A stretch of 64,000 nt of DNA from a virus. The stretch lies in the IMG/VR virus record IMGVR_UViG_3300045988_111187, positions 1 to 64,000 of that record; one strand, given 5' to 3'. Under the pieces are notes generated by a model. The model was not told the DNA's origin. It searched no databases and saw nothing but the letters and a program-made list of their open reading frames with translations. This document shows, one piece after another, positions 3,836 to 53,032 of the stretch (position 1 is the stretch's first letter; every line of letters starts with the position of its first letter). The position numbers and the translations under genes were made by a program.

Positions 3836-4179
3836 AAGATGGCATTACATTGCATCCAGAACATGGATTGAATCCGTCTATAGAAGTCTGCATGATATGT
3901 GGTGCAGAGATGGGCATTGCCTTATTAGGGAATAATATTAAAGGTCAGGCGCCGCATCATATATGTACGGGCGGAGTATGTGACGATTGCAAAAAGATAA
4001 TAGATGATGGTGGTTGTTTTATTATCGAGGTTGAAGATGGTTCAGATCAAAAGAATCCGTATCGTACAGGAAGATATTGTGCGATAAAGAAAGGGGTGGC
4101 AAAGAAAATGTTTGGGAAGGAGCATAGTATTGTGTACATGGAAAAGTCTGCATTCAGTCAAATGATACCACAAAAATGA
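3832..4179 (+). CDS. hypothetical Cys-rich, zinc-ribbon-like protein (115 aa)
   Basis: SD gaaggagg; CxxC pairs; overlaps its neighbours. Confidence 0.55.
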   Translation: MKDGITLHPEHGLNPSIEVCMICGAEMGIALLGNNIKGQAPHHICTGGVCDDCKKIIDDGGCFIIEVEDGSDQKNPYRTGRYCAIKKGVAKKMFGKEHSIVYMEKSAFSQMIPQK

Positions 4180-4502
4180 AGAAGGATATGTTTACAAAAG
4201 AAGAAAGATTATTTATATGGAAACAAGTATATGATATAATCGATAGGTCAGAGAATGGGCAATACATATGCATTGCATTAAAAAATGTAGTATTTTATTT
4301 TTTCAAAACACATAAAGAAATAGAATTTATGAGTTTAGACGAAATGGTGAGAATATATTTCCCGGAATTGAGGGCAAGGAGAAGTATGGCTACAGAACCA
4401 GAGGGAATATGGAGGATATATGGATGGTTTGGTTGTATTAGTTCAGAAACGAAGGAGGTGAGACTGAATATTGTAAAAGATATTATAAAAGAATTAGAAT
4501 AG
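4176..4502 (+). CDS. hypothetical protein (108 aa)
   Basis: ORF coupled to the upstream gene. Confidence 0.5.
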   Translation: MKKDMFTKEERLFIWKQVYDIIDRSENGQYICIALKNVVFYFFKTHKEIEFMSLDEMVRIYFPELRARRSMATEPEGIWRIYGWFGCISSETKEVRLNIVKDIIKELE

Positions 4503-4630
4503 TATTTTTGTTAACCTATTTTATTCATCAAATTAAGTTTTGGGTTTTGGCATGTCGGTTCGTGAGGATAGGCATGCCTATTTTTATGTCATAGAGGGAT
4601 GACGCGGCGTGCCGGCATGTATGTGCCGGT

Positions 4631-5464: not shown

Positions 5465-6270
5465 TATTAAAAACGACAACCAACGAGTTTTGTTTCATCA
5501 GCGTAAGTTTCTATGAAACAATAGCGGATCCTCGTCATTTCTTTGAACAGGATTATGAAGAGATGCCAGAATACGAGGAAGAAGCAGATTTTGATTTTGA
5601 TTCTTATTGCAATAAGTTTATTCCTTTTATACAGGAATGGGCGAATGAGGTAAGTGAACGCCTTTATGAATATGGCGTGAATAACATAAAGGTAACATCG
5701 GTCGGACATCCGAGAGAATACAATTATTATACTGATTGGATGAATGTGGAGGTAGAATTTTGTGATGAATGGAGGCAAAAGATGTTATCTAACATTGGTA
5801 AGATTGTTAATGATGATAAATGCAAGAAGTATGCGGAGGCTAATTATCGGTCGGTATCAGGATACATCTTTTTAGGACCTGAAGATTTAAAGGAATTTGA
5901 AAAGAAAATAATAGAAAGAAAGTCAGATTCGGGATATGATGTAACAATATTATTAAATATGTATCTAACTTTGGCTTTTGTAAAAGAATTTGGATTTAAA
6001 GCCGGAGAAGCGTGGAGTGAAATAACAGAATATGCTTACGGATGTTTATCGTATTCCGATTTTGCAACAACAGAGATGCTTATACCGGAAGGTTCGGAGC
6101 ATTTATTCAAAGACATTTACACGGCAAAGGCCGACGAATTATATCATCATGTCCTGGATAAATTCGGATGGGCGTGGCGTGATCCGAAATATAAATCAGA
6201 AACAGAATTATGCTCGATGTTAAAATGGGCAAAAGAAAAAGGCTTGACCATTGAAGAGTTAAGTATTTAA
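5461..6270 (+). CDS. hypothetical protein (269 aa)
   Basis: long ORF. Confidence 0.6.
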   Translation: MILKTTTNEFCFISVSFYETIADPRHFFEQDYEEMPEYEEEADFDFDSYCNKFIPFIQEWANEVSERLYEYGVNNIKVTSVGHPREYNYYTDWMNVEVEFCDEWRQKMLSNIGKIVNDDKCKKYAEANYRSVSGYIFLGPEDLKEFEKKIIERKSDSGYDVTILLNMYLTLAFVKEFGFKAGEAWSEITEYAYGCLSYSDFATTEMLIPEGSEHLFKDIYTAKADELYHHVLDKFGWAWRDPKYKSETELCSMLKWAKEKGLTIEELSI

Positions 6271-6297
6271 TTGTTAAACATAAGGCAGTAGTGGTGC

Positions 6298-6582
6298 GTG
6301 AGTATAGGTGCTGCCGTTAAAATATTTTATAAGATGAAAAAAGAAGAGATTCAAACTATTTTATACACAATCAAAGAAGGAGACAGTATTAAAATCAAAG
6401 TACAAGACAAAAGTGAAGAGATAAGATTGCGGGATCATGTAAGAAGAACGCAGAAATACGGATACAGGTTTTGTTTGTCTCATTTGCATGATGGAATTTT
6501 CTATTTGGAGAAGTTGGAAGAGGGAGATAAAGATAAATACTATAGAGTAATAAACAGAGGAAATGGAAAGACCGGAGTATAA
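6298..6582 (+). CDS. hypothetical protein (94 aa, GTG start)
   Basis: ORF. Confidence 0.4.
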   Translation: MSIGAAVKIFYKMKKEEIQTILYTIKEGDSIKIKVQDKSEEIRLRDHVRRTQKYGYRFCLSHLHDGIFYLEKLEEGDKDKYYRVINRGNGKTGV

Positions 6583-6806
6583 TAAGCTACGCAAAATGGC
6601 TAAGACTACTCCAGGTCTGATATTGGACGAGGCGCAAAACATGATGCGTGTATCGCTGTATGATAATGGAGAACTTAAGAAGATCGTAGTAGTAATGAAA
6701 TGCGATTCTTTTTTACAGTCAAAAAGTAACATAGAAAAGATAATGTTATTATCATCTTCTATAGAAGATAGAAAAAACAAAGAAAAAAATAAAACAAAAT
6801 CAGAAA

Positions 6807-7190
6807 ATGAACAGAATAACAAAAATAAGAGAAGAAATAGGAGGAAAACAGGTTGATTTGACCTTTTATGGGCGTTTTTGCAGCCTTATTGAAGGTGATA
6901 GAAAGATAATACTAAAGGCAATAAAAAACGGTCGTAAGGAAGGTGTAATCGGAGCCATTCAGCCTGGAAGACATGATAGAATTTGGACCACATGGGCTAT
7001 TGCTTTTGAGGATCTGAAGGTAGGGGATACGGTAGAGTTTAGTACATCCGGGAAATACAATCCAGGTTTTCATTCTACAGAAAAGTATGTAGGATGTGTA
7101 GAATGGATAAAAGGATCGGAATGTGCGATAAAAACCGGCAAAGGGATGGCAGTAGTATTAATTAAACACGTGGAAAGGGTAGTAAGATGA
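6807..7190 (+). CDS. hypothetical protein (127 aa)
   Basis: ORF. Confidence 0.5.
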   Translation: MNRITKIREEIGGKQVDLTFYGRFCSLIEGDRKIILKAIKNGRKEGVIGAIQPGRHDRIWTTWAIAFEDLKVGDTVEFSTSGKYNPGFHSTEKYVGCVEWIKGSECAIKTGKGMAVVLIKHVERVVR

Positions 7191-7468
7191 AATTGAGAGA
7201 ATTTGTAGAACTCTTTGATAAGAATGATGTAAAGGATTTGTTTAAGTCATTATCTTTATGTATGGAATACGTAAGGATAGATTTACATGTATTTAATGTA
7301 GGTGCTTATGTTACGTGCCTGTACAGTAATGATCTTGAACAGCTTTCAACGATGAAAGGGTGCGCTATATACGCGATAGTAGAAGTACCATGTTTATTTG
7401 AGGCATTTATGGAATATGCTTCACCGGAATTGAAAGCATATTATGATAAACTAACGAAAGAAGTGTGA
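7187..7468 (+). CDS. hypothetical protein (93 aa)
   Basis: ORF; 4-nt overlap. Confidence 0.5.
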   Translation: MKLREFVELFDKNDVKDLFKSLSLCMEYVRIDLHVFNVGAYVTCLYSNDLEQLSTMKGCAIYAIVEVPCLFEAFMEYASPELKAYYDKLTKEV

Positions 7469-7469
7469 C

Positions 7470-7952
7470 ATGAAAGAGGAAGTAGAACGGATAAAGAAGT
7501 TGGTAGGCATAGATCATAATAGATGGGAGCAACCTTGTACATGTGATAAATGCAAGAACATGTGTAAGATTCCTTGTATTGGTACGCCAAAAGACATAGA
7601 GGCTATCATAGATGCCGGATACGCTGATAGGTTAAAAGAAACAATGTGGATGGTAGGGTATCTTGCAGTGAAGGAAAAACCAATAGCGATGATCCAGCCG
7701 ACAGAGAAAGACGGGTGGTGCGCATTCCGCCGGCCAGACGGTCTCTGCGAGCTGCATGACCGTGGACTAAAGCCGACCGAAGGAGTTCTGGCTTCCTGTA
7801 AGATGATTGAAGAAGACAATGTTCCAACATACGAAACGTCTGTACTTAGAGCAGTGGCTAATGAGTGGGTTAAGGTGGAGAACTTTGGAGATATAATGAG
7901 GGTCGTTTTTAAATTTTTGCATGAAAATGAACGTAGAAAACAAATTAGATAA
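7470..7952 (+). CDS. hypothetical Cys-rich protein (160 aa)
   Basis: ORF; GC-rich core explains the shadow ORFs on the minus strand. Confidence 0.55.
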   Translation: MKEEVERIKKLVGIDHNRWEQPCTCDKCKNMCKIPCIGTPKDIEAIIDAGYADRLKETMWMVGYLAVKEKPIAMIQPTEKDGWCAFRRPDGLCELHDRGLKPTEGVLASCKMIEEDNVPTYETSVLRAVANEWVKVENFGDIMRVVFKFLHENERRKQIR

Positions 7953-8331
7953 AGTAGTTAAGATCCTAAAAGAAAAAGGATTTGTGGTATATAGAAAGGG
8001 CGGAAAGGAGCCGGGTGTATTTTACGCCAAAGAAGGTGACAGCCGGATAGGATTCGTTTATCCCAACAACGGATATATATATGATAGAATAAAAATGTGG
8101 TCTTTTTCAAGGATATATAAACCACATAAGAAAACCGGGTCTTCGTGTTTAATGAGCGTCAGCGACGAATTTACGATAGAGAATGCGATTAAGAACATAG
8201 AGGATAGACTGTGGGTAAATTATGTAAAAGACGGTAACAGAAAACGACCAGAAGAATACAATAATATAAGAGAATTTGTTGGTAGCTTCACTAAATTCTA
8301 CAACTCTGTAGAATTAGTTGAGGTTAAGTAG
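7921..8331 (+). CDS. hypothetical protein (136 aa)
   Basis: ORF. Confidence 0.5.
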   Translation: MKMNVENKLDKVVKILKEKGFVVYRKGGKEPGVFYAKEGDSRIGFVYPNNGYIYDRIKMWSFSRIYKPHKKTGSSCLMSVSDEFTIENAIKNIEDRLWVNYVKDGNRKRPEEYNNIREFVGSFTKFYNSVELVEVK

Positions 8332-8406
8332 TTTTCCATGTAAGTTAGTTACCGGTACTGGTCTGTGAAGATAGGTGTCGTTTTTTTTTAAGAAAGGAGG
8401 ATAAAG

Positions 8407-8658
8407 ATGGAGAAAAGAGACAAGGAAATGCCTTACGAGGTAATCATACAGGAGAGAAACAAAGTGGATTTATACGGTAACGTAGTATATTATATCTATT
8501 GGTTTGATAAATATGGGAACGATATTACAAACGAATGGAAATTCTGGAGCAAGGGTCCGAAAAAGAAATATGATAGAGTTAATCGTTATCTAACGGATGA
8601 TTGGCTGAAGAAATACTGTAAGAATGACAATTTAAAGATAAGGAGAATAAAGGAATGA
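8407..8658 (+). CDS. hypothetical protein (83 aa)
   Basis: SD aaaggagg; ORF. Confidence 0.5.
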   Translation: MEKRDKEMPYEVIIQERNKVDLYGNVVYYIYWFDKYGNDITNEWKFWSKGPKKKYDRVNRYLTDDWLKKYCKNDNLKIRRIKE

Positions 8659-9170
8659 AAACGATAAAAGTAGACAAAGTGGTTTTATATTACATGGATC
8701 GGGTAGACCCTGACGGGAACTTATACCGGTTCTATATGTATAAAGGAATGGCATCTGAAATAGAATACTTTTGCACGAAAGAGGCAGGTAATATAACCAT
8801 ACCAATCGGAGAAGGAAAGTATGTCAAGATCGTACCAAAAGAAATAGAGAGAATACCGGTAAGGGGATATAGGAAGCTTGCTGGAATATGGAATTGTGAA
8901 ACATGTAACGGAAAGGGATGGTACAGGCTTTTTAATTATTTCAAATACAAGCCGACCCTATGTTATTTTAAAAAAGCGGGACATGATGAAAATGGGAACA
9001 CAAGATACGAAATATCATTATTTAATGCCACTATGAATGTGACAAGGTATTTTAATCTGTGGAGAATGAAGCCAGGAAAGCATGCTATGATAACAAACGA
9101 GTGTGGCGCCTTGGATATTATAAAAGAAAAATTTGACAACATAAATATAGTGGAATATGGATCTAAATAA
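8655..9170 (+). CDS. hypothetical protein (171 aa)
   Basis: ORF; 4-nt overlap. Confidence 0.55.
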   Translation: MKTIKVDKVVLYYMDRVDPDGNLYRFYMYKGMASEIEYFCTKEAGNITIPIGEGKYVKIVPKEIERIPVRGYRKLAGIWNCETCNGKGWYRLFNYFKYKPTLCYFKKAGHDENGNTRYEISLFNATMNVTRYFNLWRMKPGKHAMITNECGALDIIKEKFDNINIVEYGSK

Positions 9171-28011: not shown

Positions 28012-28218
28012 ATGGAAAAGAAGGAATTTAAAATAGGAGAAGTGTTTGATGCCGGACTTGTGAGATTAAAATGCGTGGAACCTACGGCACCAGATGCAGG
28101 ATGTGAAGGATGTATATTTAATTACTTTACATGCGGGGCAGTGGGTGTGGTTGCAGGTCCGTGTAATCACGCGGAGAGGGAGGATAACAAGGATGTTATT
28201 TTTATTAAAGCTGATTAG
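28012..28218 (+). CDS. small Cys-containing protein (68 aa)
   Basis: SD aaggagg; ORF. Confidence 0.45.
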   Translation: MEKKEFKIGEVFDAGLVRLKCVEPTAPDAGCEGCIFNYFTCGAVGVVAGPCNHAEREDNKDVIFIKAD

Positions 28219-28220
28219 GC

Positions 28221-28934
28221 ATGTACATCAATTTCAGACAACTTGCAGCATCAGACATGACTCCTAATGATCTCGCTAATCTTCTTGCCATAAGACAGAA
28301 GGATTCGGTTATGATCGAAGCCATGCCGGAAGAAGATGCTGGGAGGTATATAGAGCTTGGCCTGGTTGAGAAATTAAAATCAGGCGTGATGAGATTAACC
28401 AACAAAGGAACGTCTTTTGTGAATTATATAGAGACACCGGAAATGACGGACGAGGTTCTGGAAACGTTGAAGATTATGATAGGAATGTACGAATCATATT
28501 CAAAAGACATAGGTGTCAGCAGAAAAGAAGCGGAATCCAGATTGTGTTGGTTTATGGGTAACACCTCATTTAAGAAAGAGGTCATACTTCAGGTAACAGA
28601 ATCTTATATAGCAGAGTCAGGAGATTACACAATGAGCTTATGTAACTTCATATGGAAACCGCCTTCTCAGGCTTTTTCAGTCCATATGAACCTTAAAAAC
28701 TCAAAGCTCTTTGACTTAATAGCTGAAAAATTTAAGATCGCTACCGAGCCTTATTTGGAGTCTAAGAAGAATAAGGAAATGGATTGGTTGTTTGCCGTAT
28801 CTAAATTGCCTACGCCGCCGGCTAAAGGAAATCCGGATTATTTGTTTACCGGAAGTGCGGAAACAGACAAAGAGAGGTTGAAAAACATAAAAACGTATTT
28901 ATTTAACAAAATTAGAAAGCAATGGAAAAAGTAA
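28221..28934 (+). CDS. hypothetical protein (237 aa)
   Basis: ORF. Confidence 0.55.
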   Translation: MYINFRQLAASDMTPNDLANLLAIRQKDSVMIEAMPEEDAGRYIELGLVEKLKSGVMRLTNKGTSFVNYIETPEMTDEVLETLKIMIGMYESYSKDIGVSRKEAESRLCWFMGNTSFKKEVILQVTESYIAESGDYTMSLCNFIWKPPSQAFSVHMNLKNSKLFDLIAEKFKIATEPYLESKKNKEMDWLFAVSKLPTPPAKGNPDYLFTGSAETDKERLKNIKTYLFNKIRKQWKK

Positions 28935-29173
28935 GAATTAGAAAGATAATAGAGGATATAATTATTACTCAGTTTCTTAATTCGGAAATGGATATAGTTC
29001 ATGAAGAAGATGTGTCGTTTGAAGAACTTGGATTAGATTCTCTTGATAAAGTTGAGCTTGATGTGATGGTGGAACAAAAATTCAATATTGTTGTTAATGA
29101 TGACAATATTGAATCCATCAAAGATATGACTGATCTTGTTTACAAAATAAAAACAGAAGGACATGGGAAATGA
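28922..29173 (+). CDS. acyl carrier protein (83 aa)
   Basis: exact phosphopantetheine-site signature EELGLDSLDKVEL with Ser40; ACP-like size and acidity; 11-nt overlap with the next gene. Confidence 0.7.
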   Translation: MEKVRIRKIIEDIIITQFLNSEMDIVHEEDVSFEELGLDSLDKVELDVMVEQKFNIVVNDDNIESIKDMTDLVYKIKTEGHGK

Positions 29174-29657
29174 TATAATTTTATGCATGGCTTTAATAGC
29201 ATCATTTGCTTTTGTTATACAGTTTTTGTTGTCGATATTAGGATCTGATCTGGATACGGATATTGACATTGATAACGCTTCTGATTTAAGCATGTCTTTG
29301 TCGGATATCATATCATTCAAGGGCATAACACATTTTATTCTTGGATATAGCTGGACCACATACTTTTCGGGTTCCCATTTAGTAGGGGTCGTAATAGGGT
29401 CATTTTTCTTTATCGTTTTGTTTTACGTATATAAGTTACTTCTTAAGTTAAAACAAGAAATGGTGTACGAATGTCCGGAAGATTTAAATGGCAGAGAGGT
29501 GGAGATAGTATTTAGATCAGGTAAGAATCATTATATGGTAAATATTTCTAAAAATGGAAGACAGGAACAGATGAGAGTGAGGTGCTTGTCTGGAAAAAAT
29601 TACAAAAACGGTGACAAGGTGAATATAAAATACGAAGAAGGAGAATTAAGTATCTAA
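29163..29657 (+). CDS. NfeD-like membrane protein (YqiJ/YuaF type), 164 aa
   Basis: N-terminal TM helices plus a C-terminal beta-rich OB-like domain; lies immediately upstream of the flotillin gene, as in bacterial nfeD-flotillin operons. Confidence 0.5.
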   Translation: MGNDIILCMALIASFAFVIQFLLSILGSDLDTDIDIDNASDLSMSLSDIISFKGITHFILGYSWTTYFSGSHLVGVVIGSFFFIVLFYVYKLLLKLKQEMVYECPEDLNGREVEIVFRSGKNHYMVNISKNGRQEQMRVRCLSGKNYKNGDKVNIKYEEGELSI

Positions 29658-29688
29658 TTTTTTTATCAACAATTAAATTTTAAAAGTT

Positions 29689-31389
29689 ATGACAACAATC
29701 ATGTACGTGTCAGCTATTTTAGCTGTAGTGATTATTTTGACAATCATCGGAGTCTTATCAAGGTATCGTAGATGTAAGCCTAATCAAGTCTTGGTCGTTT
29801 ATGGTAAGACAGGTGGGGAAAAGAAATCGGCGAAATTATATCATGGTGGAGCGGCATTCGTCTTGCCTATTATTCAAAGCTATGATATTTTGTCTATGGA
29901 GCCTATGCAAATAGATTGTAGGCTCACCGGTGCTTTGTCGTCTCAAAATATCAGAGTGGATGTACCTACTACTATTACAGTAGCAATCAGCACAAATCCT
30001 GAAATTATGCAGAATGCAGCAGAAAGGCTTTTGGGGATGGATACTGAATCTACTGAAAATCTTATTACGGATATCGTTTATGGCCAAATGCGTTTGATCA
30101 TTGCTGAAATGACGATTGAAAAACTTAATTCTGACAGGGATGAGTTTTTGGATAAGGCAAGAAAAAACATTGATAACGAACTTAATAAGTTAGGCCTTTA
30201 CCTCCTAAATATCAACATCAGTGACATCAGAGACGAAGCCGGCTATATCATGAATCTTGGCAAAGAAGCTGAAAGTAAGGCCCTGAACGAAGCACAGGCT
30301 AATATCGAAGAACAGGAAAAGCTGGGTGCTATTAAGATTGCTGTACAGCAAAAGGAAAAAGAAACGGCTGTAGCTAATACCCAAAAAGAGCAAGAGATTC
30401 AAATTGCCTATACTGAAAAAGAAAAGGAAACGGTAGTAGCTGAAACAAAGAAAGAAAAAGAAGTAGCTTTGGCTTTAACCGATAAAGAAAAACAGATCGG
30501 TGTAGCTCAAGCCGATAGAGATAGGGCTGCGGTTATTGCAAAGACTTTGGCTGATAAGGAATCAGCGATCGCAAGATCTAAGGCAGAACTTGAGGTAAAC
30601 AAAGCTGAGGCTGAAAGAATGGAAGAAGTCGGAAAGAATAAGGCTGAGGCTGATAAACAAGCAGCTATAGCAATCCAAGATTCCGAAGCTCAGATCAAGA
30701 AAGCTGAAGCTGAGAAAAACGCATCTGTGGGTTATAACAATGCCCAGAAAGAGGTTGCTATATCAGAATCGGAATTACAGGTTATCAAAGCTCAATCAGA
30801 AAAGAAGGCTGGAGAAGAGAGAGTTAAGTCGGAAGCGGCTGTAAAAACGGCAAAAGAGCTTGCTGATAAAGAAGTGGAAGAGGCTAAGGCTGAGAAAGTT
30901 CAAGCTGCGCTTCGAGCTGAAAAGATTGTGCCGGCTGAAACCCAGAAGCAAGAAGCCATTCTGCAAGCTGATGCTGAAGCTGAGAAGATCAAACGCCGGG
31001 CTGATGCCGAAGCAGCAGCACATTTGGCAAAAGCAGAAGCGGAAGCAAAAGCTATTCAGATGAAGCTGGAGGCAGAAGCCGAAGGTAAGAAAAAGTCGTT
31101 GATGGCAGAAGCCGACGGATTTAAGGCTATGGTGGAAGCAGCAGAATCCAATCCTCAGATAGCCATCCAGTACAAGATGGTTAATCAGTGGAAAGAAATT
31201 GCTGGAGAACAGGTTAAGGCATTTGAGCACATTAACCTCGGAAATATCACGGTATTTGACGGCGGTCAGAACAGTACCGGTAATTTCCTTAACAATGTTG
31301 TTAAGACCGTCGCTCCGGCATTGGGAGTCATTGATCAGCTTCCGATTGCAGATACTTTAAAGAAGCTAAAAGGAGATGACAAAAAATAA
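29689..31389 (+). CDS. flotillin-like SPFH / band-7 protein (YqiK/FloA type), 566 aa
   Basis: N-terminal TM; SPFH block HGGAAFVLPIIQ ... GLYLLNINISDI; then about 300 aa of EA-rich coiled coil (AEAEK repeats). Confidence 0.8.
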   Translation: MTTIMYVSAILAVVIILTIIGVLSRYRRCKPNQVLVVYGKTGGEKKSAKLYHGGAAFVLPIIQSYDILSMEPMQIDCRLTGALSSQNIRVDVPTTITVAISTNPEIMQNAAERLLGMDTESTENLITDIVYGQMRLIIAEMTIEKLNSDRDEFLDKARKNIDNELNKLGLYLLNINISDIRDEAGYIMNLGKEAESKALNEAQANIEEQEKLGAIKIAVQQKEKETAVANTQKEQEIQIAYTEKEKETVVAETKKEKEVALALTDKEKQIGVAQADRDRAAVIAKTLADKESAIARSKAELEVNKAEAERMEEVGKNKAEADKQAAIAIQDSEAQIKKAEAEKNASVGYNNAQKEVAISESELQVIKAQSEKKAGEERVKSEAAVKTAKELADKEVEEAKAEKVQAALRAEKIVPAETQKQEAILQADAEAEKIKRRADAEAAAHLAKAEAEAKAIQMKLEAEAEGKKKSLMAEADGFKAMVEAAESNPQIAIQYKMVNQWKEIAGEQVKAFEHINLGNITVFDGGQNSTGNFLNNVVKTVAPALGVIDQLPIADTLKKLKGDDKK

Positions 31390-31397
31390 ATACAATG

Positions 31398-31418
31398 GCC
31401 CAAGGTTACACTTGGGCC
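31398..31418 (+). terminator. hairpin ggcccaag-gttaca-cttgggcc just after the flotillin stop
   Basis: perfect 8-bp stem; only a weak U-tract follows. Confidence 0.4.
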
Positions 31419-33781: not shown

Positions 33782-34159
33782 ATGAAAAAAGAAGTTACAA
33801 TCAAGGAAGATATGGTTGCGTTTTATAAAAATGCAGGAAAGGAACTATGGATTTATAACGGACTTTTTAGAAACAAGGTATTGTCTATAAAAAAAGATAA
33901 AGCCATTATCATGTGTGAAACTGATGCTGAATATGCTGTACTGATAGAAGATAATCAGTTTATTGCCGTAGCAAAAAACATGGATTATGATTACTGCTGC
34001 GCATTCACATTAGGTAATGCCGAGGCTTATGGAGATCGTATGGGTATATCGTGCAGTGTATGCTTGCTTGAGGATAACGAAGATAAAGCAAGAGAGATGC
34101 TAAAGGAGGCAATAATAGAACTTTCAAAAAACAGTAAAATAGATTGCGATGGGCTTTGA
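33782..34159 (+). CDS. hypothetical protein (125 aa)
   Basis: ORF. Confidence 0.45.
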   Translation: MKKEVTIKEDMVAFYKNAGKELWIYNGLFRNKVLSIKKDKAIIMCETDAEYAVLIEDNQFIAVAKNMDYDYCCAFTLGNAEAYGDRMGISCSVCLLEDNEDKAREMLKEAIIELSKNSKIDCDGL

Positions 34160-36518
34160 ACTTAGACCTTACCAAAAAGAGGCAGTAGATGCCGGGCTTA
34201 AGTTTCTTACAGGAAGATCTAAGAAGCCTGGCATAATAGTAGCTCCATGCGGATGTGGAAAGAGCCTTCTGATATCCAAGATAGCACATGAAATAAATAG
34301 ACCGACGTTAGTGTTACAGCCCTCAAAAGAGATTCTGGAGCAGAATTATGCAAAGGCTGTATCATTCGGTTCTAAACCTACCATATATTCTGCCTCATGT
34401 GGCGTAAAGGAATTATCGGCTATGACTTATGCTACACTTAAAAGCATAAAGAAAGACGTAGCAAGGTTGAAAGATATAGGGATAGATACGATCCTGATAG
34501 ATGAATGTTTTACTGGAGATGTGGAGATATTAACCGAAAAAGGGTTTGTTCAATTTAATAAATTAGAACAAAATGTAAGGGTAGCTCAATATGATAAAGG
34601 ATTTATTGATTTTGTGATGCCTATCAGATATATCAACAAGCCGCACGATGGTGACATTTGTTTACTTCATATTAAACATGGAATAGATCTTCCAGTGACA
34701 AAGAATCATGATTTCTTGTTTTATGATAAGAAATACGGTAAATGGTATAAACAGAAAATATCTGAAGCTTCTTTTAAATCTGGGAAATGCATTCCGGTAT
34801 CAGGGATATCACGTGTAGATAGCGAAGGCGATTCCTTATCTGACATGGAGAGGTTGTTTATAGCAACACAAGCAGATGGAAGTATTCATAACAAAAACGA
34901 AAATGACACAATTATATCTTTCTCATTTTCAAAAGAAAGAAAAATAAAAAGGATTCATTATTTATGTAAGAATGCAAACGTTGAGATATGGGAAGTTAAA
35001 GGAAAAATAGAAAAAGAAGGAAATACGAAAAACAGAAGAAGGTTTATGGTAAGAATGCCAAAGTTTACAACAAAGGATATTCGAAATCATATATCATTCC
35101 CAATGTCTTACGAAAAAGCAAGATCGGTAATAGAAGAGTGTTCTTTATGGGACGGCAGTATTATAGGGAATACGATGCTTTATTATTCATCGACCGATAA
35201 AACGCAGGTGGATTTTTATAATTCTGTAGCCACAATAGCTGGCCACGGATGTTATGTTTCTATTGAAAAGGATGGCAGAAAAGAAACATATTCGGATGTT
35301 TATAGGCTTTTTATAACAAAAGACAAAAAACTAAGAGGCACTAACTCTATGTATAAACGATATGAAAAATACACCGGACAAGTTTATTGCGTAGAGGTTC
35401 CATCTGGATGTATAGTACTAAGATATAAAGGATATACATTTGTTTCTGGAAATTGTCATTCAGGATATTCTCCTGAAGAAGGTTCTGAGTTTATAGAGTT
35501 TATGAGCGAGTTTCCCGAGGCGAAGGTGCTTGGCTTCACCGCCACTCCCTGCCGCCTCCGAACCTACAGTTCCATGCTGGAAGGAAACTACAGCAAGCTC
35601 AATATGCTGACGAAAGACGAGCATAATTTCTTCAAGAAAATAGTTCATGTGACTCAAATACAAGAATTAACTTCTCAAGGGTTTTGGTGTCCACTTAAGT
35701 ACGAACGATGGTCGTTTGATGAATCGGCGCTGATGTTGAACAGCACCGGAGCTGAATACACCAACGAATCTATTAAAGAAAGTATTGTACGAAACGGCTT
35801 AAACAACTCTATCTACAAGCGCCTTCTTCAACTTATGAACGAACGTAAGGCCATTTTGGTTTGTATGGATTCTATCGAATCATGTAATAGAATATCAGAG
35901 TTCATGAATGCCAGGATGGGAGCCATAACCGGTGTCGTAACATCGCTAACAACCAAAAAGAAAAGAGAGCAAATCATATCAGATTTCAAAGAAGGTAAGT
36001 TGAAGGTGGTTTTTAATTATTCAACGCTTGCTACCGGATTTGATTTCCCTGAACTTGATTGCGTGATGTTTGGTCGCCCAACATTCTCATATTCAACATA
36101 TTACCAAATATTAGGCCGCGCCGTCCGCATCCATCCTGACAAGAAAGAGGCGCTGATAGTTGATTGCTGCGACAACATGAGGCGTTTCGGTCGGATAGAA
36201 GACTTGACAATCGAACAATTCCCTTCTAAGGGCTGGTGTATGTTTGCCGGCGATCAACTTCTGTCCAATATAAGGATGGGTGATATTATTACCAAAGACG
36301 AGATCCTTCGTCGGGCAGCCTCGCTTAAATCTGTGAATGGAGATGGTAGGAGAGAAGACGATCTTGACAGCATAATAATGTGGTTTGGTAAATATGAAGG
36401 GATTAGATTCAAGGACATACCGGTGTCGTATTTTAGGTTCTTGGCTGAGAATATGGCAGTAAAACCAGGAGATAGAAAAGAAAAGATTATCGAATATTAT
36501 AATAGAATAAAAGCATGA
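34149..36518 (+). CDS. SF2 DEAD/DEAH-box-type helicase interrupted by an intein (789 aa precursor; about 473 aa mature)
   Basis: motif I APCGCGKS; motif II LIDE-[intein]-CHSG; motif III FTATP; motif VI QILGRAVR. Confidence 0.75.
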   Translation: MGFELRPYQKEAVDAGLKFLTGRSKKPGIIVAPCGCGKSLLISKIAHEINRPTLVLQPSKEILEQNYAKAVSFGSKPTIYSASCGVKELSAMTYATLKSIKKDVARLKDIGIDTILIDECFTGDVEILTEKGFVQFNKLEQNVRVAQYDKGFIDFVMPIRYINKPHDGDICLLHIKHGIDLPVTKNHDFLFYDKKYGKWYKQKISEASFKSGKCIPVSGISRVDSEGDSLSDMERLFIATQADGSIHNKNENDTIISFSFSKERKIKRIHYLCKNANVEIWEVKGKIEKEGNTKNRRRFMVRMPKFTTKDIRNHISFPMSYEKARSVIEECSLWDGSIIGNTMLYYSSTDKTQVDFYNSVATIAGHGCYVSIEKDGRKETYSDVYRLFITKDKKLRGTNSMYKRYEKYTGQVYCVEVPSGCIVLRYKGYTFVSGNCHSGYSPEEGSEFIEFMSEFPEAKVLGFTATPCRLRTYSSMLEGNYSKLNMLTKDEHNFFKKIVHVTQIQELTSQGFWCPLKYERWSFDESALMLNSTGAEYTNESIKESIVRNGLNNSIYKRLLQLMNERKAILVCMDSIESCNRISEFMNARMGAITGVVTSLTTKKKREQIISDFKEGKLKVVFNYSTLATGFDFPELDCVMFGRPTFSYSTYYQILGRAVRIHPDKKEALIVDCCDNMRRFGRIEDLTIEQFPSKGWCMFAGDQLLSNIRMGDIITKDEILRRAASLKSVNGDGRREDDLDSIIMWFGKYEGIRFKDIPVSYFRFLAENMAVKPGDRKEKIIEYYNRIKA
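34506..35453 (+). other. intein (316 aa) with a LAGLIDADG-like homing-endonuclease region, inserted in helicase motif II
   Basis: block A CFTGDVEIL; block B TKNH; LFIATQADGS (LAGLIDADG-like); block F VYCVEVPSG; C-terminal ...SGN followed by the +1 Cys of the extein CHSG. Confidence 0.75.
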
Positions 36519-51516: not shown

Positions 51517-52737
51517 TTACTTTAATATAATCGGATGCCTCTTCCCTCTAACGAGTTTAAACTTTTTGCGTGAAACATCTTTTGAATTTTCTCCGTTGAA
51601 ATCCCTGATATTGAAACTCCCTGATTTTCTCCTTCCATAAACAAAGAATATTTTATTGTTATACAACACTTTATCAAACAACCTAAAACCGAAAACCTCA
51701 AAAGGAGCTTGATTGTTTTTCTTCTTCCCCCCTTTTAAAATTTTCATTTTATGTATTTGTCTATTATGTCTACGAATTAAACGTTTTAAATATTGACGTT
51801 CGATTCGTTTCGCATTAATATTCTTAGAAATGACAAACGCGTCGGATGTATGGGATTTTTCAATCCCATATTTAATCCGATTATGTTTCGTAATGTAACC
51901 AAACGTCATAAAAACTCTGTCGTATCTGGATTTTAACTCTTCATACAACCTCCATTTCATAATTCCCATTACGGCTGCGTCGCGAAGCGACTTGCCTCTT
52001 CTGATCTTTAAATCTATATTACCTTTATGGTATTCTTTGTGACATGTTTCACATAAAGTTATAAGATTAGAAGGGGAATCCCCTCCGGTTTTTCGAGACT
52101 CAATATGATGAACATTCAGTATAGAATCTTTTGACTTGCCTTTACAATACTGGCATTTATGTCCATCTCTTGCTAAAACATACTCCCTTGTGTTCCAAAA
52201 CTCAAGTTGATCACCTTCCTGGTATTCTTTACCTGATATCTCAGGATTCTTAATCTTTTGAGTATCGAATTGAGCTACTTCAATAACAATACGAGATATT
52301 GGTAATATAGAGCAAACATTTTCAACAACACGAATATGGGCGTCTACTTTGTATTTCACCGAAGGTGCTATCCATCCTGGACGCTTGCTTTTTACTCTGT
52401 TATCGAAACGAGGTTTTCTATACCTCAACCTATTCCGTCTTGTTCTTCGTAGCTCCCTTCTGGTAGACAAAAGATCTACAATGTCATTTCTGAGGATTAC
52501 TTCACTACTGTAAAGTTCTTTGCTTTTCGTTGTAGCTGATAGACCAACGTGTTTGGTTCCAGCATCAACGCCTAATACAATTTCTTGTTTGTAACTATCG
52601 GATATGTACGTCAATCGGATGGTAAACGGACATAGGTTTACAACGACTGCTTTGTTTGATTTGAGCAGTCTCCTAACCTTTCCATGTCTTGTTGTTGGCA
52701 TCAGAGGTTTACCATCTATGTCTTGTACATACACCAT
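51517..52737 (-). CDS. iscB: IscB RNA-guided nuclease (IS200/IS605 OMEGA system), 406 aa
   Basis: PLMP domain (DGKPLMPTTRHGKVRRLL); RuvC-I LGVDAGTKHVGLSA; Arg-rich bridge helix; RuvC-II IVIEVAQFD; HNH CQYC ... HHIESRKTGGDSPSNLITLCETCH; RuvC-III HTSDAFV. Confidence 0.9.
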   Translation of the reverse strand: MVYVQDIDGKPLMPTTRHGKVRRLLKSNKAVVVNLCPFTIRLTYISDSYKQEIVLGVDAGTKHVGLSATTKSKELYSSEVILRNDIVDLLSTRRELRRTRRNRLRYRKPRFDNRVKSKRPGWIAPSVKYKVDAHIRVVENVCSILPISRIVIEVAQFDTQKIKNPEISGKEYQEGDQLEFWNTREYVLARDGHKCQYCKGKSKDSILNVHHIESRKTGGDSPSNLITLCETCHKEYHKGNIDLKIRRGKSLRDAAVMGIMKWRLYEELKSRYDRVFMTFGYITKHNRIKYGIEKSHTSDAFVISKNINAKRIERQYLKRLIRRHNRQIHKMKILKGGKKKNNQAPFEVFGFRLFDKVLYNNKIFFVYGRRKSGSFNIRDFNGENSKDVSRKKFKLVRGKRHPIILK

Positions 52738-52740
52738 ATC

Positions 52741-53032
52741 TACAAACGTTTTTAATGTTTATTCAACATAAGTCAGGAATATTTCATCCTGTTAGTACCC
52801 ATCGCCAATGTTATAAGAGGTTTTTCGCAAGCAACACTGAAACCCGAATACAATCTCTGTTTAATCGCTTGCCTTAGAGCTACGGACTTGGACAAACATC
52901 CGTAGGTAACTATCTATTCTCAAATAACGTAGCCTTCGTTTCAAGGCTTAGGCTAATATCCGGACCATTTCTGGTACATTAAAACCTTATAATGGAATTA
53001 TATTGTTTTAATGTTATTTCGGATATTGAAAG
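52741..53032 (-). ncRNA. putative omega-RNA of IscB (5' of iscB, same strand)
   Basis: lies where IscB omega-RNAs are encoded; homologous to 31559-31861, with covarying stems. Confidence 0.65.

Follow-up and report, generated by a model that had tools for sequence, protein, structure and literature searches.

A flotillin-family gene, its predicted NfeD-like partner and a fast-evolving ACP-like gene in the cargo slot of a crAss-like gut phage

Results

Three packed genes in a common gut phage

We analysed positions 1 to 64,000 of the IMG/VR virus record IMGVR_UViG_3300045988_111187, a stretch of 64,000 nucleotides that we refer to as the window and whose numbering is used throughout. Three consecutive open reading frames (ORFs) on its + strand are the subject of this work: an 83-residue acyl carrier protein (ACP)-like ORF that matches the PP-binding family (28922-29173, pI 4.4), a 164-residue NfeD-like membrane protein ORF with three predicted transmembrane (TM) helices and a predicted C-terminal OB-fold (29163-29657), and a 566-residue flotillin ORF with Band_7 and Flot matches (29689-31389). 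A preliminary description made from the sequence had given these ORFs, the 11-nt overlap between the first two (29163-29173) and the 31-nt gap before the third (29658-29688) exactly as we find them, and had read the genes as one functional operon joining an ACP to a flotillin. That reading disagrees with the gene content of related phages, with the bacterial loci, with natural deletion variants and with the selection acting on the genes; as set out below, these genes probably belong to two unrelated modules.

The phage origin of the window is confirmed. GenBank OR575929.1, phage csAssE-Sib (human gut, 151 kb), matches the region at 93.9% identity, and among its annotated products are a terminase, a portal, a capsid protein and muzzle and ring proteins of the crAss type; we take the source to be a crAss-like Bacteroidales phage. 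Because OR575929.1 already labels the three genes 'acyl carrier protein', 'transmembrane protein' and 'flotillin family protein', they are public at the level of annotation, and a search of the literature on flotillin in crAss-like phages, on csAssE-Sib and on phage-encoded flotillin returned no dedicated study. Relatives of the flotillin lie on at least 162 IMG/VR contigs (tblastn, E<=1e-3), the best 80 of them 96-99% identical, and the phage is very common in the human gut. That a flotillin on a phage is unusual, as the preliminary description had it, is borne out by the deposited phage records: flotillin-like matches occur in 9 of 50,697, with at least 80% query coverage only in csAssE-Sib and in phage KIT04. 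Flotillins are thus rare in phages.

The membrane protein and the flotillin form a recognisable pair

By its domain content, the 566-residue protein qualifies as a true flotillin. It matches PF01145 (Band_7) with 90 bits against a cut-off of 23.6 over residues 30-211 and PF15975 (Flot) with 38.4 bits against a cut-off of 27 over residues 450-559, while an N-terminal hydrophobic anchor and an E/A/K-rich helical region (residues 200-450) are visible in the translation. Among solved structures it comes closest to human flotillin-2 and flotillin-1 (9bq2 and 9l3g; E 7e-24). The best NCBIfam model is FloT (NF058507), whose 700-bit equivalog cut-off is far above the 146.5 bits reached, and the phage protein is therefore not a FloT orthologue.

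The middle ORF had been called NfeD/YqiJ-like. Its placement as a short NfeD-like protein is well supported by a structure model and by gene context, and the Pfam profile did not match: the ORF has no Pfam match at E<=0.1, PF01957 (NfeD) included, and no usable match in NCBIfam, PHROGs or PADLOC. Even within its family, PF01957 is matched by two of 77 sampled members (best 6e-5). A profile built from a five-sequence alignment of the family found no match in the PDB, and one built from 77 sequences returned YuaF alone and weakly (E = 0.34), with hhalign giving a probability of 54% for the family against YuaF. Modelled with AlphaFold (pLDDT 75), the 164-residue protein shows three hydrophobic helices and an acidic DxDxDxD loop that is disordered; its C-terminal part is a beta domain with pLDDT 82-89. 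From the model and a reading of the sequence, the TM helices are predicted at residues 2-25, 52-69 and 72-101, and the C-terminal domain (residues ~108-164) is predicted to fold as a five-stranded OB-fold beta-barrel. As for context, the gene adjoins an SPFH gene in the window, in the related phages L088 and L258, on the contig L086 and in all but one of 80 bacterial loci.

The DxDxDxD loop and an SFKGxxHF motif are conserved and, together with F-x-x-Q-F-x-L-S, mark a family with 433 cluster representatives in a set of 1.84 billion proteins, most of them 160-180 residues long. Its members appear to be the usual companions of flotillin in Bacteroidales. Known SPFH-NfeD operons include yuaF-floT of B. 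subtilis and yqiJ-yqiK and ybbJ-qmcA of E. coli. Unlike yuaF (NfeD2), yqiJ and ybbJ, the phage gene encodes a protein that is missed by the Pfam NfeD and YqiJ models and that carries the family-specific DxDxDxD loop and SFKGxxHF motif; its flotillin neighbour likewise departs from the B. subtilis example in not being a FloT orthologue.

The ACP-like gene and the pair are distributed independently

The gene directly upstream, g237 (28221-28934, + strand), which the preliminary description had passed over, encodes a conserved 237-residue winged-helix, all-alpha protein in the replication-gene block, and its 3' end overlaps the start of the ACP-like ORF by 13 nt. Scans of viral contigs gave only near-identical relatives (96-100%), owing to the abundance of the phage, and these are uninformative for deep co-conservation, and we therefore took g237 as the anchor, whose homologs grade from 98% to 36% identity. 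All three genes are present in the window and csAssE-Sib and again in L258 and L088, where g237 is 76% identical. Beyond these two lineages the set breaks up. L252 and L253 (g237 60%) have an ACP-like gene and lack both the membrane protein and the flotillin. All three genes are missing from six lineages: L259 (g237 63%), where g237 is followed directly by a g115 homolog and then by the PD-(D/E)XK nuclease gene; L260 (57%); L254 (52%), where g237 abuts the nuclease gene; L261 (44%); L255 (37%); and L257 (36%). Co-conservation of the three genes in related phages, on which the preliminary description had staked its operon, therefore does not hold.

In L252 and L253 the ACP-like gene again overlaps g237. 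Its product, in which Asp replaces the attachment Ser (motif GFDDLD), still matches PP-binding with 33.9 bits. In L252 the slot (5675-8946 of a 154-kb contig) holds, in order, the ACP-like gene, a C5 DNA methylase gene, the g115 homolog, a 53-residue ORF and two radical SAM genes, a set that may serve DNA modification or some other chemistry. The PD-(D/E)XK nuclease gene comes next. The converse case is L086, a contig of unspecified type, which carries the membrane protein (36% identical) and the flotillin (38% identical) with an upstream gene that is transcribed divergently and no ACP. Between the window and the L088-like lineage the flotillin differs by ~17% and the membrane protein by ~39% at the protein level, and the pair is intact in both. 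Because contents differ between lineages in this way, the space downstream of g237 is a variable cargo slot in which the ACP-like gene and the pair are distributed independently; g237 is its upstream boundary, and the slot lies between g237 and the g115 and PD-(D/E)XK nuclease genes, within the replication-gene block.

A two-gene operon on Bacteroidales chromosomes

A scan of one bacterial genome per species with the membrane protein found 88 relatives; we retained the best 80 loci, almost all of them from Bacteroides, Phocaeicola, Parabacteroides, Prevotella and other Bacteroidales. The homolog is followed by a flotillin homolog after a gap of ~15-30 nt in 79 of the 80, the exception being a 1.2-kb contig. 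Operons of NfeD and SPFH genes are, as the preliminary description stated, standard in bacteria. By BLASTP, the phage and bacterial flotillins share a median identity of 65% over ~557 residues and the membrane proteins 32-41%, around 36%. No homolog of the ACP-like gene, g237, g115 or the PD-(D/E)XK nuclease gene lies within 5 kb on either side of the 80 loci. What flanks the pair varies from one bacterial genus to the next and often lies on the opposite strand, and the bacterial unit is therefore a two-gene operon.

Chromosomal pairs such as those of Phocaeicola vulgatus ATCC 8482, Bacteroides xylanisolvens XB1A and Parabacteroides goldsteinii share the gene order, domain layout, short gap and sizes (~165 and ~550 residues) of the phage pair. 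Unlike them, the phage copy lies in a replication-gene block with an ACP-like gene in front. In a crude neighbour-joining tree, which has no support values, the flotillins of both phage lineages fall into a single clade, separate from and beside a sampled bacterial clade of Bacteroides, Phocaeicola, Parabacteroides and Prevotella. This pattern is consistent with a single capture of the pair from a Bacteroidales host chromosome. Such a capture was not recent, since the pair has diverged by 35% (flotillin) and by more than 60% (membrane protein) from any sampled host copy.

The pair is constrained, and is lost without the ACP-like gene

Measured against the window across 80 near-identical IMG/VR loci, the ratio of nonsynonymous to synonymous substitution rates (dN/dS) is 0.02 for the flotillin, 0.04 for the membrane protein and 0.05 for g237, with dS of the pair at 0.23-0.32. 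Flotillin and membrane protein are thus under strong purifying selection. The same ratio is 0.50 for the ACP-like gene and, across analyses, ranges from 0.37 to 0.50 as against 0.02-0.10 in its neighbours; the ACP-like protein has a median amino acid identity of 83% to its window counterpart, versus 97-100% for the products of the DnaB, g200, g237, membrane protein, flotillin and PD-(D/E)XK genes. The ACP-like gene is a fast-evolving passenger separate from the pair.

Natural populations also contain genomes in which the pair has been largely deleted. In several database proteins (P0028, P0031 and P0047) the N-terminus of the membrane protein is fused in frame to the C-terminus of the flotillin, with junctions that differ between samples. 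One deletion variant was found in two independent ENA assemblies (L262 and L263; 32 kb and 76 kb; gene at 4001-4591), where the order is g237, ACP, a 196-residue remnant, g115 and the PD-(D/E)XK gene, with the ACP-like gene and the flanks intact. One of the variants belongs to the L088-like lineage. Because the deletion variants keep g237 and the ACP-like gene and lose most of the membrane protein and flotillin, the module is dispensable and is recurrently lost while the ACP-like gene stays. The tally for the three genes is an ACP-like gene without the pair in L252 and L253, the pair without an ACP-like gene in 79 bacterial loci and on L086, and none of the three in the six phage lineages named above.

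The ACP-like protein

The phosphopantetheine attachment signature reported for the first gene stands. The ORF matches PF00550 (PP-binding) with 28.5 bits against the Pfam cut-off of 20.8 and PHROGs family phrog_5934 ('acyl carrier protein') at 1.2e-10, and it retrieves 75 ACP sequences from the PDB at E<=0.01, many of them at E ~1e-6. Its residues 34-46 read EELGLDSLDKVEL, with GLDS40LD aligned to the GADSLD of canonical ACPs, and Ser40 and the GLDS motif are the same in all 42 unique alleles seen at 146 loci. The best match to an NCBIfam AcpP equivalog model reaches 37.4 bits, far below the cut-offs of 66-106 (for one model, 36 against 70), and the protein is therefore a member of the ACP family and not a housekeeping AcpP orthologue.

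A cognate phosphopantetheinyl transferase (PPTase) or acyl-ACP synthetase, which the preliminary description had proposed to look for, did not turn up. A Pfam scan found no PPTase, AMP-binding, KAS or acyltransferase family among the 82 other ORFs of the window or in the 39 hypothetical proteins of csAssE-Sib outside it, and the annotation of csAssE-Sib names no PPTase or acyl-handling enzyme. With no acyl-handling enzyme found in these proteins and annotations, only a host PPTase could modify the ACP-like protein, and modification by host AcpS is possible. We also considered g237 as a hidden PPTase and rejected it, as it has a winged-helix, all-alpha fold and is also present in relatives that lack the ACP-like gene.

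Stand-alone phage ACPs of PHROG 5934, such as ORF32 of Erythrobacter phage vB_EliS-R6L, are like the window protein in being small PP-binding proteins of phages that carry no fatty-acid or polyketide enzymes, and phage ACP homologs have been reported as auxiliary metabolic genes of unknown function (PMC5463345). Unlike these, the ACP-like gene of the window is translationally coupled to a winged-helix gene and hypervariable within its species, and its sister lineage has lost the attachment serine. Two other small ORFs, neither with a family match, are hypervariable as well: 28012-28218 (+, 68 residues) and 33782-34159 (+, 125 residues) have median amino acid identities within the phage species of 62% and 66%, respectively, against 97-100% for larger conserved genes.

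Surroundings of the slot

The surrounding 42 kb form a single + strand gene block by GC skew, within which the DnaB-like helicase and PD-(D/E)XK nuclease genes lie. A GC-rich hairpin (31397-31418, +) starts 8 nt past the flotillin stop codon, with the sequence GGCCCAAGG-TTACAC-TTGGGCC and a folding energy of -17.4 kcal/mol (z = -4.4 against shuffles). It is likely the 3' end or a stabiliser of the transcription unit. No T-run follows it on the + strand, and it is therefore not a canonical intrinsic terminator. A sigma-70 promoter scan gave no excess over shuffled sequences, its consensus being unsuited to Bacteroidales and crAss-like phage promoters.

Between the flotillin gene and g115 the window has an orphan HEARO RNA (the IscB-associated omega-RNA, RF02033; 31555-31799, +; 95.7 bits) next to which no IscB ORF lies. 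This insertion is polymorphic, being found in 14 of 80 close IMG/VR loci (gap ~500 nt), while the gap from the flotillin gene to g115 is ~150-200 nt in 65 of them. The insertion is 79% identical to a copy at 52768-53022. The window also has a complete IscB-like element (51517-53001, -) in which a 406-residue ORF with RRXRR (207 bits) and HNH domains is directly preceded by a HEARO RNA (105 bits). Two further ORFs of the window have TnpB-type domains (OrfB_IS605 and Cas12f1-like_TNB). The helicase ORF at 34149-36518 (+) encodes 789 residues as compared with 473 in csAssE-Sib and L262, with ~435 residues that match no Pfam family between ResIII (3-120) and Helicase_C (557-661). This insert may be intein-like, since an intein with a LAGLIDADG domain occupies the corresponding position in L255, a distant relative.

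Discussion

We consider it probable that the slot holds two unrelated cargo modules side by side, a host-derived pair and an independent ACP-like gene, a judgement that applies mainly to their architecture and evolution. The first module would be the NfeD-like and flotillin genes, a self-contained operon captured once from a Bacteroidales host and kept thereafter by purifying selection. The second would be the ACP-like gene, an older and independently distributed resident of the slot that is coupled in translation to g237 and not to the pair. As to physiology, the ACP-like protein would have a role separate from that of the pair.

What the pair does for the phage can be proposed more tentatively, by analogy with its bacterial counterparts. 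SPFH-NfeD cage complexes (QmcA-YbbJ and FloA-NfeD) have been described, and NfeD has been proposed to promote SPFH oligomerisation (PMC13086221). On this model, the pair would be transcribed along with the early or middle replication genes, and the phage flotillin, anchored by its N-terminal hydrophobic segment, would oligomerise by means of its long helical region and its Flot domain, giving an SPFH cage or dome on the cytoplasmic side of the inner membrane. The NfeD-like protein, itself embedded in the membrane, would dock its OB domain on the SPFH ring, as in the known complexes. The phage pair may then supplement or take over the host flotillin scaffold, so that membrane organisation and the stability of membrane proteins are preserved during infection, as an accessory and not an essential function. 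We regard such a supplement or takeover as possible, with far less confidence than we place in the architecture.

Several points weigh against this interpretation. The three genes are tightly packed and probably co-transcribed, and they stay together in the window-like and the L088/L258-like lineages, so that a lineage-specific link between the ACP-like gene and the pair is possible. The direction of transfer, from host to phage, is one that we infer from the breadth of the bacterial distribution and from a crude tree without support values. The physiological role is likewise purely inferred. Finally, the recurrent deletions could mean that the module is costly or useful only under some conditions.

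The best-surviving alternative concerns the ACP-like protein, which may be no working carrier and instead a small acidic protein-binding factor. As a mimic or decoy of host ACP, it would titrate or redirect some host protein that binds ACP, and would evolve quickly along with that target. We hold this unlikely. It would account for a dN/dS about ten-fold over that of the neighbours and for the concentration of polymorphism in residues 40-66 (helices II-III), the partner-binding face, where 11 of 27 sites are polymorphic as against 7 of 56 elsewhere (Fisher p = 0.009). The Asp that replaces the attachment Ser in a sister-lineage protein still recognised as PP-binding, the lack of phage acyl enzymes in the searches above, the scores far under the AcpP equivalog cut-offs and the published phage ACP homologs of unknown function (PMC5463345) point the same way. 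Set against these, Ser40 and GLDS are strictly conserved in the window lineage, dN/dS is below 1 in every segment of the gene, dS is also raised in the variable segment, and old alleles, recombination or relaxed constraint explain the pattern equally well. Positive selection on helix II (dN/dS > 1) was looked for separately and not found, with dN/dS at 0.41 there and dS raised too.

Less probable still is that the pair is a counter-defence or exclusion device and not a housekeeping supplement. It could co-assemble with the host cage, to which it is ~65% identical, and poison or re-purpose it, shield the membrane from membrane-disrupting abortive-infection effectors, or block the entry of DNA from competing phages. 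In a sister lineage the cargo slot also carries a methylase gene and radical SAM genes, and such a slot is a typical site for host-interaction genes; the pair is moreover accessory and recurrently deleted. Other phages offer partial parallels. The T5-like Vibrio phage KIT04 resembles the window in having a flotillin gene in a lytic phage genome (L250, 3680-5350; 28% identical to the window flotillin), directly preceded by an 82-residue ORF with several TM segments, but one that lacks an OB domain; its flotillin was acquired independently, from a host of another phylum, and has no ACP neighbour. An SPFH lipoprotein gene, again without an ACP neighbour, occurs in the lytic Schitoviridae phage GIB1 (PMC13239085). 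Of an SPFH gene in a phage, the authors of that study state that 'the reason ... remains unclear', and they speculate on a role in adsorption or DNA entry. Speaking against a device of this kind, a dN/dS of 0.02 and low diversity are unlike those of typical arms-race genes, the literature searched gave no experimental link between flotillin and phage defence, and the PADLOC models, a library of defence and not counter-defence systems, were unmatched.

The mimic idea can be carried further, as a long shot. The ACP-like protein would be re-purposed to bind a host ACP-dependent enzyme or sensor by its helix II-III face, would be free of a prosthetic group in the sister lineage, and could here cooperate with the flotillin/NfeD cage to reprogram membrane-lipid homeostasis.

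The original proposal, one functional operon whose holo- or acyl-ACP passes an acyl group or a cofactor to a membrane microdomain built by the phage, has become improbable. It has in its favour the overlapping or abutting genes, an arrangement kept in L088 and L258 though their ACPs have strongly diverged, the unvaried attachment serine and GLDS motif, and helix II acidic residues recognised by PPTases, which are kept when the sequence is read against established ACP knowledge. Several comparisons tell against it: the 80 bacterial loci have no ACP near the pair, L252 and L253 have the ACP-like gene, with its Ser-to-Asp change, and no pair, and the deletion variants lose the flotillin and keep the ACP-like gene. 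Moreover, the acyl-ACP synthetase, acyltransferase, KAS and PPTase that such a pathway would draw on were not found in the proteins and annotation described above, and the two parts evolve under selection regimes about ten-fold apart. That the pair is functionless passenger DNA picked up recently from a host, an idea that the recurrent deletions and its absence from most related lineages might encourage, is largely refuted by the selection data and very improbable, given the dN/dS of 0.02-0.04 at a dS of 0.23-0.32, a pair intact in two well-separated lineages, and its divergence from every sampled host copy.

A host-derived accessory module of this kind is uncommon in phages, and in this phage it is already annotated in GenBank. 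We return to the reading of two modules side by side for what it would mean. A large Bacteroidales membrane-protein family, almost wholly without Pfam assignment, is here placed in the NfeD-like class on the strength of its modelled fold and its neighbourhood. Genes packed tightly together in the cargo slot of a phage need not share a function, which is a practical lesson for the scanning of genomes. Flotillin/NfeD scaffolds are widespread in bacteria and their physiological role is debated. That an abundant gut phage keeps a captured pair under purifying selection suggests that the scaffold matters during infection, and the wild deletion variants that exist beside intact genomes provide a natural experiment.

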